Origin: an uncultured Actinomycetes bacterium
GTDB taxonomy: Bacteria > Actinomycetota > Thermoleophilia > Gaiellales > JAICJC01
Reading direction: 5' to 3'
NCBI GenBank assembly: GCA_963718315.1
Contig: CAVQZC010000006.1
Span: 54,059 to 118,058, forward strand
Length of the DNA stretch: 64,000 bases
Positions within the stretch are counted from its first letter, which is position 1, and each line of letters begins with the position of its first letter. A model generated the notes under the pieces. The model worked only from the letters and a program-made list of their open reading frames with translations. It was not told the origin of the DNA and did no database searches. Position numbers and translations under genes: made by a program. Below, in pieces: positions 41,908-48,480 of this stretch.

Positions 41908-43098
<1,191 letters not shown>

Positions 43099-43112
43099 GC
43101 GATCGGAGCACG

Positions 43113-43421
43113 GTGGCTCAGCAGAAGATCCGAATCCGGCTGAAGGGATACGACCACACGCAGGTCGACCTGTCGGCGCGTTCGATCGTGGAGACGGCAC
43201 AGCGGACCGGGGCAACGGTCTCCGGTCCGGTGCCGCTTCCCACGGAGAAGAACGTCTATTGCGTTATCCGCGGCCCCTTCAAGGACAAGGACTCGCGTGA
43301 GCACTTCGAGATCCGCACGCACAAGCGGCTGATCGACATCCATCAACCCACGCCCAAGACGGTCGACTCGCTGATGCGGCTCGACCTGCCGGCCGGCGTC
43401 GACATCGAGATCAAACTGTGA
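43113..43421 (+). CDS. rpsJ: 30S ribosomal protein S10
   Basis: QKIRIRLK and GPVPLPT motifs. Confidence 0.98.
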
Positions 43422-44038
43422 GCAAGGGCATCATCGGCAGGAAGCTGGGCATGACCCAGCTCTTCGACCAGGAGTCGGGCATCGTCACCGCGGTGACGGT
43501 GATCGAGGCCGGACCCTGCCCGGTGGTGGCCGTGCGCACGCAGGACGCGGACGGCTACACCGCCGTCCAGCTGGCCTTCGGCAAGGTCAAGGAGCGGAAG
43601 CTCTCAAAGCCGGAGGTCGGGCATCTGAAGCACGCCGGCGCCGAGCCGCACCGCCATCTGGTCGAGATCCGCGACGCCGAGGGCTTCGCGGTCGGTGACA
43701 TGGTCACGGTGGAGCAGTTCGAGGCCGGCGAGAAGGTCAAGGTCAGCGGCCGCTCCAAGGGCAAGGGCTTCGCCGGCACGATCAAGCGCCACAACTTCCA
43801 CCGCGGCCCGGTCAGCCACGGCTCGCACAACGTCCGCGCACCGGGATCGATCGGCGCGTCGGCGACGCCGGCCCGCGTCCGCAAGGGCATCAAGATGGCC
43901 GGTCACATGGGCGACGAGCGCGTCACCCAGCGCGGCCTCAAGGTGGCCGAGGTCGACACCGAGCGCAACCTGCTGCTGATCGCGGGCGCCGTGCCCGGGT
44001 CGATCGGCGGCCTGGTCGAGATCAGGACGGATAGCTGA
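43418..44038 (+). CDS. rplC: 50S ribosomal protein L3
   Basis: GRKLGMTQ and SKGKGFAG motifs. Confidence 0.98.
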
Positions 44039-44658
44039 TGGCTGCGCTGACTGCACCAACCCTCGGCGCTACCGCCAAGGCCAAGCTGTCGGACGAGGTG
44101 TTCGGCCTGGATCGGAACGATCCGCTCGTCCACCAGGTCGTGACGGCCGAGCTGGCCGCGCGCCGGCAGGGCACCGCCGAGACCAAGACCCGCGGCCTGG
44201 TGGCCGGCGGCCGCGCCAAGCCGTGGCGCCAGAAGGGCACCGGCCGCGCCCGTCAGGGCACGACCCGTGCGCCCCAGTGGACCGGCGGCGGCGTGGTCTT
44301 TGGCCCGCACCTGCGCAGCTACACCGGCAAGGTCAACCGCAAGGCCCACGTCAAGGCCCTACGGATCGCCCTCTCCGCGCACGCGGCGGCGGGCACGGTG
44401 GCCGCACTGGACGGCAAGAAGCTGACCGAGCCGAGCACCAAGGCAGCCGCCGAGATGGTCAGCGGCTGGCGCCAGGAGCGCCCGCTGGTGGTCGTCGTCA
44501 CGTCGGATGAGACGGCTGTGGAGCGCTCCTTCCGCAACCTCGACCGGACGCACGTCGTCAACGTCTCCCAGCTCGAGGTCGCAGACCTCGTGTGGGCGCG
44601 GTCGCTGCTGGTTTCGAAGGCCGCGCTGGCGGTGCTCGAGGGAGGTGAGGCGTCGTGA
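44038..44658 (+). CDS. rplD: 50S ribosomal protein L4
   Basis: KPWRQKGTGRARQG motif. Confidence 0.98.
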   Translation: MAALTAPTLGATAKAKLSDEVFGLDRNDPLVHQVVTAELAARRQGTAETKTRGLVAGGRAKPWRQKGTGRARQGTTRAPQWTGGGVVFGPHLRSYTGKVNRKAHVKALRIALSAHAAAGTVAALDGKKLTEPSTKAAAEMVSGWRQERPLVVVVTSDETAVERSFRNLDRTHVVNVSQLEVADLVWARSLLVSKAALAVLEGGEAS

Positions 44659-44951
44659 ACGGCGATCCCCGCTCCATCCTCATCTCGCCGGTCGTGTCCG
44701 AGAAGAGCTACGGCCTGATCGCCGAGCGCGGCAAGTACACGTTCAAGGTGCACCCCAAGGCGCACAAGACGCAGATCCGCCAGGCGGTCGAAGAGGTCTT
44801 CAAGGTGACGGTGATCGGTGTGAACATCTCCAAGATGCCGGCCAAGCCGAAGCGGCGCGGCATGATCCAGGGCACCCGCCCGGGCTGGAAGAAGGCCGTC
44901 GTCACGGTCGCTCCCGGCCAGACAATCGAAGCCTTCGGACCGGGAGTCTGA
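44655..44951 (+). CDS. rplW: 50S ribosomal protein L23
   Basis: PVVSEKS and WKKAVV motifs. Confidence 0.97.
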   Translation: MNGDPRSILISPVVSEKSYGLIAERGKYTFKVHPKAHKTQIRQAVEEVFKVTVIGVNISKMPAKPKRRGMIQGTRPGWKKAVVTVAPGQTIEAFGPGV

Positions 44952-45110
44952 GTGCCCAACCCCGCAACATCTGTTGGCGTCTGGCGGCTGCAAAGCGTCG
45001 CCATGCGTCGTCCGTGGATCGGGCCGTGCAGAGCACTGTCCCGATCCAGCGTCCTAGCCTGGCTCGCTTTTCGCTCGCCAGCCATCCAACGACGTCACGG
45101 GGTTGACCAC
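44952..45110 (+). repeat. Fold-back intergenic element D (rod-like) inside the S10 operon
   Basis: Nested pairs gtg/cac, caaccccg/cggggttg, gttgg/ccaac, ctggcg/cgccag, aaagcg/cgcttt, tggatcggg/cccgatcca and gtgc/gcac. Confidence 0.85.
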
Positions 45111-45112
45111 TG

Positions 45113-45949
<837 letters not shown>

Positions 45950-45953
<4 letters not shown>

Positions 45954-46234
45954 GCCGGTCCAGCAAGAAGGGGCCCTTCGTGGACCCCAAGCTGATGAAG
46001 CGAGTCGAGGAGATGAACGAGACGCGCCAGAAGCGCATGCTCAAGACCTGGTCGCGCACCTCCACGATCTTCCCCGAGTTCGTCGGGCACACCATCGCGG
46101 TGCACGACGGGCGCAAGCATGTCCCGGTGTTCGTGTCGGAGTCGATGGTCGGCCACAAGCTGGGCGAGTTCGCTCCCACGCGCACGTACCGCGGGCATGG
46201 AAACGATCGCACGAGCAAGCTGAAGGGACGCTGA
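45950..46234 (+). CDS. rpsS: 30S ribosomal protein S19
   Basis: [12 protein letters not shown] and [11 protein letters not shown] motifs. Confidence 0.98.
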
Positions 46235-46235
46235 G

Positions 46236-46989
46236 GTGGCGGTAGCCGTCAAGGATCGGGAGACCGTTCGGGCACAGGCCCGGTACGTGCGCTCCTCGGC
46301 GCGCAAGGCGCGGCTGGTGCTCGAGCACATCCGTGGCAAGTCCGCCTCGGAGGCGACCAGCATCCTGGCGTTCCAGACGCGTGCTGTTGCCAAGGACGTC
46401 GGCCTGGTGCTGAAGTCCGCGATCGCCAACGCCGAGACCAACAGCGGGTACGACCCCGACGAGCTGGTCGTGGTGGCGGCGTACGCAGACGAGGGCCCGA
46501 CGCTGAAGCGCTGGCGCGCCCGCGCCCGTGGCCGCGTGAACCGGATCCGCAAGCGCTCGTGCCACATCACGATTCTTGTCGGCCCGGCGCTGCCGGGCGA
46601 GATCAAGCCCAGGAAGGTGCGCCCGGTTGCCGAGGCGGCACCTGCCGCGCCGACGCGCCGCAAGCGCGGCTCGAAGGCCGCCGAGGTGCCCGGCACCGAG
46701 CCGATCGCCGAGGAGGCCGTCGTCGAGGATGCAGCGGCGGAGGAGACGACGCCTGAGGCCGCCGAACGAGGCCACCGAGCCTGAGGCCGCGCCCGAGACC
46801 GAGGCAGAGGCGGACGCCGAGCCTGAGCCGGAAGCCGAGCCGGAGCCGGAGCCGGAGGCCGCGGCGGATCCCGAGCCGGAGCCCGAGCCCGAAGCAGCGC
46901 CTGAGCCCGAAGCCGAAGCTGAGCCCGCGCCGGAGGCAGAAGCCGACGACGCCAAGCCGAGCACCGATGACGAGGAGGCCGATTCCTAA
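46236..46989 (+). CDS. rplV: 50S ribosomal protein L22 with long acidic Glu/Pro/Ala tail (indel near 46768)
   Basis: [10 protein letters not shown] and [13 protein letters not shown] motifs; the tail continues in a shifted frame to TAA overlapping the rpsC ATG. Confidence 0.93.
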
Positions 46990-48052
46990 TGGGCCACAAA
47001 GTCCATCCAGGCGGCCTCCGTGTGGGGATCATCCACACCTGGAAGTCGAACTGGTTCACCACCACCAAGGAGTTCGCGGGCTACCTGTCCGAGGACACCA
47101 AGATTCGCGACCACATCTACGGCAAGCTGTCGCACGCCGGCCTGTCCGACATCCACATCCGCAAGGACAACCAGCGGGTGACGGTTGACATCTACACGGC
47201 CCGCCCGGGCATCGTGATCGGCAAGTCTGGCTCCGAGGTGGATGCGCTCCGCAAGGAGCTGCACGACATGACCGGCAAGAGCGTGCAGGTCAACATCACC
47301 GAGATCAAGCGGCCGGAGCTCGACGCCAAGCTGGTGGCGCAGTCGATCGCCGAGCAGCTTCAGAACCGCGTCTCGTTCCGGCGAGCCATGAAGCGCTCGC
47401 TCAGCTCGTCGATGCGATCGGGCGCCCAGGGCGTCAAGATCCGCTGCGGCGGGCGCCTGGGCGGCGCCGAGATGTCCCGCTCCGAGTCCTACAGCGAGGG
47501 CCGCGTCCCGCTGCACACGCTGCGCGCGGACATCGATTACGGGTTCGCCGAGGCGAAGACGACGTTCGGCCGGATCGGCGTCAAGGTCTGGATCAACAAG
47601 GGCGAGATCATGCCCGAGGGCTTTGAGCGCGACGGCGGCGCGACCCGCCTGGGCGAGGTCGACACGCGCCGCAGGCGCGGTGGCCGTCCGGGAGATGCCG
47701 AGCAGCTCGGTCCCGCTCGCCCGCAGCGCCGCGGACGCGGAGGCGGCGGAGGCGGCGGTGGTGGTGGCGGTGGCGGCGGTGGTGGACGTCGGCCACGCGG
47801 CGGCGGTCGGTGGCGGTGGCGGCGGCGAGGGTGCCGGCGGCGGCGCGACGCCCGGTGCGGGTGGTCGTCAGCGGCGTCCGCGCCCGCAGGCGGACACGCC
47901 CAAGCCCGATGCGCCAAGCCGACGCGCCCAAGTCAGAGACACCCAATCCCGACGCACCCAAGCCCGAGGCGGCGGCTCCCGAGGCAACTGCGCCCGAGAC
48001 CGCGGCTCCCGAGGCTGCGCCGGAGGCAACCACCGAGGGTGGTGAGTCGTAG
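46989..48052 (+). CDS. rpsC: 30S ribosomal protein S3 with Gly-rich and acidic tail (indel(s) 47800-47940)
   Basis: [15 protein letters not shown] and [11 protein letters not shown] motifs; the tail ends TTEGGES-TAG overlapping rplP. Confidence 0.93.
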
Positions 48053-48480
48053 TGCTGCTGCCGAAGCGAACGAAGTACCGCAAGGTGCATCGGGGCAGGC
48101 GCGCCGGCATGTCGAAGGGCGGCAACCGCGTCCAGTTCGGCGAGTACGGGCTGAAGTCGCTCGACGCTGGTTGGGTCACCAACCGCCAGATCGAGGCTGC
48201 CCGAATCGCGATGACCCGCAAGATCAAGCGCGGCGGCAAGGTCTGGATCACGATCTTCCCCGACAAGTCGGTGACGGCGAAGCCCGCCGAGACCCGCATG
48301 GGCTCGGGCAAGGGCTCCCCGGAGCACTGGGTGGCCGTGGTCAAGCCTGGCCGCGTGATGTTCGAGCTGGCCGGCGTGCCGGAGCCGCTGGCGCGCGAGG
48401 CGCTGCGCCTGGCCGCGATGAAGCTGCCGGTGAAGTCCAAGTTCGTGACCCGGGAAGGTGATCTCTTTGAAGGTCAGTGA
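48052..48480 (+). CDS. rplP: 50S ribosomal protein L16
   Basis: [10 protein letters not shown] and RMGSGKG motifs. Confidence 0.98.

Follow-up and report, generated by a model that had tools for sequence, protein, structure and literature searches.

How does an essential operon tolerate a long palindrome between two of its genes? This question is raised by the rplW/rplB junction of the window, by which we mean the whole stretch of 64,000 nucleotides that was analyzed. The ORF layout of the window bears out the original prediction that neighboring S10 genes overlap or nearly touch, and tightly coupled essential operons are the expected worst place for a 160-nt hairpin. Yet the palindrome was found to belong to a family with copies at at least seven ribosomal-protein junctions. 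In the following, G-labels denote genomes (G000 is that of the window itself and is 89% complete), X-labels sequencing runs and L-labels loci.

The rplW/rplB Junction and Its Fold

The rplW gene (L23, 98 codons) was located at 44655 to 44951 from the ORF list and its translation and by tblastn against 29 relatives; like the other features of the junction listed here it lies on the plus strand. It ends with TGA at 44949 to 44951, a stop codon that is TAA in the X1 strain (44950 G>A). The stop is followed directly by GTG (44952 to 44954), the left end of a palindromic element of 159 nt that extends to CAC (45108 to 45110) and was delimited by its fold and by alignment with 74 other copies. TGATG follows at 45111 to 45115. 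The element carries an open frame of 53 codons (44952 to 45113) that begins at the GTG, is in phase with rplW and ends at the right copy of TGA (45111 to 45113), and this stop overlaps the ATG at 45113 to 45115. A GGAG located at 44943 to 44946, within the 3' end of rplW and 5 nt before the element GTG, is read as the ancestral Shine-Dalgarno (SD) sequence of rplB, based on the count of SD-like motifs given below and on relatives with a compact junction, which carry GGGAG or GGGGG at this place.

The region from 44930 to 45130 was predicted to fold as RNA into a single long rod of -92.7 kcal/mol. Dinucleotide-shuffled controls (n = 200) had a mean of -75.6 with a standard deviation of 4.7, which gives the rod a z of -3.66, and none of the 200 was equally stable. 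The 159-nt rod hairpin between the rplW stop and the rplB start was therefore found where the original prediction had placed it, and A44951 can pair with T45111 as described there. The conserved core of the family (GGCGGCTGCAA ... TTTTCGCTCGCC) spans 44983 to 45079 and includes an internal loop of conserved sequence. In this loop GCGTCCT occurs in nearly the same form on either side of the stem, at about 45005 to 45013 and 45050 to 45058, and the same was seen in the family alignment; a loop with such two-fold symmetry could fit a dimeric binding protein. The apical stem-loop (45016 to 45047) differs between subfamilies, with the pairs preserved by double changes. An Rfam scan of 43000 to 47000 on both strands with E values up to 10 gave no match at the element. 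Scans of 44600 to 45400 gave no promoter-like site and no plus-strand terminator.

Insertion into a TGATG Overlap

Run X1 yielded a single contig of 500 nt covering 44762 to 45262, with 11 substitutions and one gap relative to the window. The left junction was also crossed by a contig from run X3 and the right junction by a contig from run X2. Furthermore, the insert was found at the same rplW/rplB junction in five other genomes of the same family (G012, G006, G021, G069, and G055). An assembly artefact or chimera could be suspected from a frame error located 10 nt downstream in this assembly and from probably two others close by, but for the insert itself this is refuted by the independent contigs of three runs across both junctions and by the five orthologous copies, which leave it a negligible probability.

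An alternative put forward in the original prediction was that the element had inserted into a TGATG overlap and duplicated the TGA, in which case an alignment of related junctions was expected to show the overlap where the element is absent. This is strongly supported. The relative G014 was found to have the exact empty site, gtcTGATGgcag. A compact rplW/rplB junction, with a gap of 2 to 10 nt, was present in 26 of the 30 related loci. Comparison with these relatives shows that the element was inserted into TGATG, with TGA now present on both sides. Two further pairs of filled and empty sites were obtained by comparing two G012 copies with sister genomes; in one of these the empty GAGCTAATGCCC corresponds to the filled ...CTAG/GTG...CAC/TAGTGCCC. 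Target duplications were 3 nt long in the window (TGA/TGA), in G012 (TAA/TAA) and at L053 and L054, while others fitted TA within CTAG or were unequal on left and right. Overall the duplications resemble either TNA, of 3 nt, or TA inside CTAG. The Correia elements (CREE) of Neisseria duplicate a TA target.

Among 65 genomes of the family, the insert was found across the rplW/rplB junction in six (G000, G069, G012, G055, G006, and G021), which belong to four genera. Thirteen more gave matches to the flanks only, and the other 44, many of them incomplete, gave no match at the threshold used. Since the insert is absent from most relatives, it is dispensable.

The rplB Start in This Assembly

The ATG at 45113 had been taken as the start of rplB. 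Its overlap with the TGA was confirmed, but in this assembly it is out of frame with the rplB body and opens a nonsense frame of 110 codons. The rplB (L2) body occupies 45114 to 45953, in a frame that starts straight after the TGA at 45111 to 45113 and has its first canonical start codon, ATG, at 45159. In all 29 related loci the rplB start codon is followed by GCx GTx/ATC ... AAG CCx ACx (Ala-Val/Ile-..-Lys-Pro-Thr) with no extra base. Compared to these loci, the start region of the window (45113 to 45128, ATGGCAGTTCGAGAAGTTC) carries one surplus base, which falls within ATGGCAGTTCGAGAAG. The contigs from X1 and X2, at about 98% identity to the window, have one base fewer at 45121 and a G>A change at 45123, resulting in an intact frame from the ATG. 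G000 contains a single copy of rplB, and a second one was not found in this genome. From the frame-intact relatives, the X1 and X2 contigs and the other likely indels nearby, we read the shift as an error; the surplus base is probably an assembly indel and not biology. A programmed +1 frameshift at the rplB start was considered and rejected in view of the 29 of 29 in-frame relatives, the in-frame X1 and X2 contigs and the other likely assembly indels.

Two further likely frame breaks were noted downstream. The rplV ORF stops at 46784 in its acidic tail, and a parallel open frame (46576 to 46989) ends overlapping the rpsC ATG. The rpsC ORF, with a poly-Gly/acidic tail at about 47700 to 48461, overruns rplP by approximately 400 nt, and another frame ends just before the rplP start.

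A Family of Palindromic Repeats in Thermoleophilia

While the rod was correctly recognized, its membership of a repeat family was absent from the original prediction, as were the better fold of the antisense strand and the out-of-frame ATG. Judged from the aligned sequences, which establish that it belongs to the family, the rod is one copy of a palindromic element of about 160 nt that appears MITE-like and mobile and has spread across soil Thermoleophilia. In G000 we obtained 20 nhmmer matches to the family profile. The S10 copy is the only full-length one in this genome; all the others share the central 100 nt or so and have different outer arms. Related genomes carry many copies. A scan for the exact core pattern with one genome per species returned at least 120 stretches, and among the matches listed nearly all were in MAGs labeled Thermoleophilia, Gaiellales/Gaiellaceae, Solirubrobacterales, Thermoleophilaceae or Actinomycetota. 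Two of the stretches, one in a Mariniblastus MAG and one in a Spirochaetaceae MAG, look like chance matches. Of the 123 distinct core matches in all loci fetched, 75 had GTG and CAC ends with at least 10 of 13 positions paired.

Sequence conservation across orders was seen for the family core, GGCGGCTGCAAA.C ... TTTTCGC.CGCC, and for the internal loop that has GCGTCCT on both sides. Terminal arms and apical stem vary between subfamilies and retain their pairing. Compensatory double changes were found at 31 of 44 consensus pairs in an alignment of 65 copies, and the hairpin, conserved in this way, is likely to be under selection. With respect to the properties of a MITE, the elements are 159 to 165 nt long, occur in many copies, code for no transposase and are palindromic over their whole length, that is, they have terminal inverted repeats.

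We found no description of such a repeat in Thermoleophilia in the literature searched; supplementary repeat catalogs lay outside this search and may hold an earlier listing. The family, its class-wide core, the design that is readable in two directions and the strand asymmetry appear to be undescribed.

Strand Asymmetry

The strand antisense to the GTG frame was predicted to be the more stable one in all 75 copies, with a mean of -104.6 kcal/mol compared to -83.8 kcal/mol for the sense strand, a difference of about 20 kcal/mol. For the window copy the values were -100.5 and -80.7 kcal/mol, respectively. The commonest mismatch on the sense strand is C·A, which becomes G·U on the other strand, and the antisense strand therefore folds better; in the 75 copies we counted 402 G-U pairs on the antisense strand and 185 on the sense strand. 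The asymmetry is an intrinsic polarity of the family, and it offers a clean handle on the movement of the element or on its binding partner. Because the antisense strand is better in every copy, selection on the structure may not act on the mRNA at all.

Placement of Copies and the Element-Borne Frame

We called the coding strand of the flanks from G+C by codon position in 180 nt on each side. In 24 copies both flanks ran in the direction of the GTG frame, and in eight both ran against it; one copy was of the (-,+) type, and 42 of 75 had an ambiguous or missing flank. To qualify as a strict junction, a copy had to have an upstream ORF of at least 50 codons whose end reached 0 or 1 nt into the GTG and a downstream ORF of at least 50 codons starting no more than 7 nt from the CAC. 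Under this rule 22 copies are true stop/start junctions, a placement that the empty sites of sister genomes bear out for the two G012 copies described above. Across different genomes, copies were found at seven different ribosomal-protein junctions, namely rplW/rplB, rpsS/rplV, rplV/rpsC, rplR/rpsE, and rpsK/rpsD, and, by reading of the flanks, rpmJ/rpsM and rplE/rpsN.

The length of the element is a multiple of three (159, 162, 165 or 219 nt) in 60 of 75 copies and not in the remaining 15. The frame that starts with the first base of the GTG is free of stops in 88% of the copies, and in 97% of those with a length divisible by three, compared to 48% and 60% for the other two sense frames; since the copies are related by descent, neither the open frames nor the lengths are independent counts, and by our own estimate a stop-free frame of 54 codons would arise by chance roughly 3 times in 10 at about 68% G+C. 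A length divisible by three combined with an open frame was seen in 21 of the 22 strict junctions and in 37 of the 53 copies elsewhere (Fisher p = 0.016). In the strict junctions the frame meets a stop directly after the CAC in 19 of 22 cases, and in 16 of 22 this stop shares bases with the start codon of the host gene. Such a stop on the right side may have arisen simply through target duplication.

At rplW/rplB, the copies of G000, G012, G006, and G021 are free of stops in the frame that ends at the rplB start, although the G006 copy is 6 nt shorter and the G021 copy has a nested insertion of 54 nt. No stop interrupts the GTG..CAC stretch of the G069 copy or of the G055 copy either. An SD-like motif in the end of the upstream gene was found for 15 of 23 junction copies, the one in the window being the GGAG 5 nt before the GTG. 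As the ends are palindromic, the opposite strand also begins with GTG and ends with CAC; over all copies its in-phase frame was open in 60%, and among the 15 listed copies in reverse context it was open in 13. A Pfam search with four of the element peptides matched no family, and the peptides look like junk.

How rplB May Be Translated

We propose a relay similar to that of MIRUs, in which ribosomes pass from rplW to rplB by means of the GTG, the open frame and the stop that the cassette itself carries; we consider this reading about evenly poised between right and wrong. The element GTG has taken the place of the former rplB start codon, 5 nt downstream of the former SD sequence GGAG. Ribosomes that finish rplW, or that bind to GGAG, would initiate at this GTG, melt the rod while translating it, terminate on the TGA at 45111 to 45113 and re-initiate at the overlapping ATG. 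In this way the translational coupling of the essential operon would survive the insertion. The window copy is oriented such that, of the two hairpins it could form, the mRNA carries the weaker one. We infer that the element frame is translated and that its translation keeps rplB expressed. If this relay is true, a selfish element is made harmless by carrying its own start, frame and stop, and the old observation on MIRUs extends to a palindromic element in an almost unstudied class of soil bacteria. One finding against the relay in this assembly is that the ATG it would feed is out of frame with rplB.

Contigs from the RNA run X15 covered only about 44972 to 45095. This is the family core without either junction, and the contigs may stem from other copies, so they say nothing about expression of the S10 copy. 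Among the X15 contigs listed no joint skipping the element was found, at a cover too thin to count.

The element frame need not be translated if the ribosome that terminates at the rplW stop melts the 5' arm and thereby frees an SD-like purine tract in the 3' arm together with the ATG. An SD-like motif was found in the last 18 nt of the 3' arm, 5 to 10 nt before the host start, in 16 of 23 junction copies, and the terminal stem is preserved by covariation. However, the window copy has only GGGG at this place (no motif; -5.7 kcal/mol), and such an unmasking predicts no selection on frame or length. We regard it as unlikely, if worth keeping in mind.

A more far-reaching view, which we hold to be somewhat less probable still, is that the family is an ancient, class-wide palindrome that ribosomes could read both ways, with GTG at either 5' end, a stop at either 3' end and, on each of the two strands, an open frame of a multiple of three. 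It would colonize essential stop/start overlaps, and at some sites, including rplW/rplB, it would have been kept since before the genera split and selected by the host for translational coupling or for control of L2 dosage. The real structured form would then be the antisense strand, used by a mobilizing or binding protein.

In phage T4 gene 38 a hairpin between the SD sequence and the start codon shortens their effective distance. The original prediction invoked the same arrangement for rplB, with the intact rod bringing GGAG (44943 to 44946) to about 7 nt from the ATG at 45113; the 30S subunit would then use the old SD across the base of the helix. This geometry was found to be right and the rod to be very stable. 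Moreover, since the insertion took place at the old stop/start overlap, any family copy would, once folded, restore the old distance from SD to start. The features found family-wide do not call for a loop-out, however. It leaves the lengths divisible by three, the open frame and the enrichment of both at junctions unexplained; a length of a multiple of three, an open GTG frame and a stop that overlaps the downstream start favor the relay over a looped-out SD. GGAG also lies at the ideal distance, 5 nt, from the element's own GTG, and a helix of 75 bp between SD and start is far larger than in the T4 precedent. The T4 hairpin is small and is not known to be mobile or to carry an ORF. Looping out is accordingly a doubtful explanation.

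Equally doubtful is that the minus-strand structure is what matters, either as an antisense RNA or as single-stranded DNA for mobility or for binding of a dimeric protein, with the S10 copy kept for the benefit of the host, e.g., for tuning of L2 synthesis. The greater stability of the minus strand in all 75 copies and the conservation of core and internal loop across orders agree with this. So do the grouping of the rplW/rplB copies of four genera, which are not exclusively monophyletic, in one strongly supported clade of the 159-nt subfamily, and the observation that the element changes less between strains than third-codon sites do. Against it stand the lack of a promoter-like site in 44600 to 45400, the lack of a matching Rfam family and the presence of the insert across the junction in only 6 of 65 genomes, which makes the insert dispensable.

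Finally, the rod could be cut by RNase III or a similar enzyme into separate mRNAs on the rplW and rplB sides, or it could act as a stability element. Long imperfect double-stranded RNA is a typical substrate, and CREE of Neisseria are described as binding RNase III and as being either cut or protected (PMC2649163). The copies were found to favor the weaker and more mismatched hairpin in the mRNA, by 24 to 8 confident calls, an orientation bias that looks like avoidance of a strong hairpin. Processing of this kind is improbable at this locus.

History of the S10 Copy and Search for a Mobilizing Enzyme

A maximum-likelihood tree was built from the rplD/rplW and rplB flanks. It follows the genus labels, and the carriers of the insert are polyphyletic in it: G012 falls among insert-free g2 genomes (100/100), the sister group of G000 is g5, and G006 and G021 branch off at the base. 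Among the 75 copies the one nearest to the window copy is that of G012, with an identity of 0.80 overall and 0.86 in the outer arms; no other exceeds 0.70. The tree of the element copies joins G000 to G069, a genome of the sister genus (95/95), and this pair falls inside one 159-nt subfamily (100/100) that also holds other copies from ribosomal-protein junctions.

The kinship of the copies at this site fits one old insertion that was followed by many precise losses, and a hairpin between direct repeats of 3 nt should be lost easily by slippage. Alternatively, rplW/rplB may have been entered repeatedly from one subfamily.

Between G000 and G012 the element identity is 0.80, while the third codon positions of the flanks are 0.68 to 0.72 identical. 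The window and the X1 strain, which are nearly identical, differ at 2 of 159 sites of the element and at 7 of 107 third codon positions of the flanks (Fisher p = 0.033). Of the changes in the element, one brings back a base pair, and in the other C·C becomes C·A. With so few changes relative to the third positions of the flanks, the S10 copy looks constrained where it is placed.

We also looked for an enzyme that could mobilize the family. IS630-type DDE_3 domains were found in none of the five genomes searched. Y1 domains (PF01797, IS200/RAYT-type) were found in four of the five and not in G000, a genome that is 89% complete. None of the six Y1 genes examined (L231 to L236) had a copy within approximately 1.5 kb. 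REP sequences and REPINs, which go together with RAYTs, are dispersed palindromes with long hairpins and strand-specific structure. Membership of the REPIN/RAYT system was rejected, since no Y1 gene was flanked by the repeats (0 of 6) and none was present in G000. No recurrent neighbor gene was found within 2.5 kb of the copies in loci L088 to L207. The neighbor comparison and the DDE_3 search thus gave no parent insertion sequence sharing the ends of the element. An apparent cluster of recurrent neighbors (17 ORFs in 16 loci) was discarded as an artefact, since its stop-to-stop ORFs took in translated sequence of the element.

Comparison with Known Systems

Like integron attC sites, the element is a strand-asymmetric imperfect palindrome, in all 75 copies. 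The base of attC bears conserved core sites, and attC sites occur in arrays of cassettes beside an integrase; the element has GTG..CAC ends instead, and its copies are single and lie between housekeeping genes.

MIRUs are actinobacterial repeats within operons that are co-transcribed and contain small ORFs overlapping the flanking genes, with filled and empty sites and short direct repeats (PMC3184786, citing Supply et al., 1997). The element resembles them in its location between operon genes and in its ORF, which overlaps the neighboring stop on one side and the neighboring start on the other. MIRUs are 40 to 100 bp long, often in tandem and found in Mycobacterium, whereas the element is a single palindrome of 159 to 165 nt with a conserved core in Thermoleophilia.

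The Rickettsia palindromic elements (RPE) are palindromic repeats of about 150 bp that lie in frame and are translated together with their host genes (PMC10969869). A length of a multiple of three and an open frame are also found in the element. RPE are, however, in-frame insertions inside coding sequence, while the element would form a small separate cistron between a stop and a start, with its copies at junctions or gene ends. [quoted passage not shown]

The Correia elements of Neisseria are palindromic MITEs of 100 to 150 bp with a conserved core that are co-transcribed with their neighbors (PMC2649163). They act via promoters, IHF sites and RNase III, and the portion of the source consulted describes neither a relay ORF nor a placement between stop and start.

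Overlapping stop/start pairs such as TGATG couple translation (PMC6728339), and re-initiation is influenced by stable structure immediately downstream of a stop codon (PMC7518266). Both termination-reinitiation coupling and such termination structures are properties of the host junction and not of an inserted mobile cassette.

With regard to annotation, "genes" of about 54 codons and apparently long intergenic gaps in operons of Thermoleophilia are to be taken as copies of the repeat.

Variant Copies

A second subfamily was found in G000, with the same core, longer outer arms (TATCTCTCGCG...CGCGAGATA) and an extra small hairpin. Its copies are located at C13:572330-572450, C13:687697-687811, C12:734901-735011, and C7:972515-972614. 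Core and arms seem to be separate modules.

On C7 of G000 (L003:1-1653) a short-form copy lies at the 3' end of an H+-pyrophosphatase gene. The ORF runs through the copy and ends overlapping the next ATG, and the copy appears to add a C-terminal tail to the H+-pyrophosphatase.

A smaller hairpin element was nested at the same place in two copies. It is 54 nt long in L027 (the rplW/rplB copy of G021) and 57 nt long in L059 (G012), both lengths being multiples of three.
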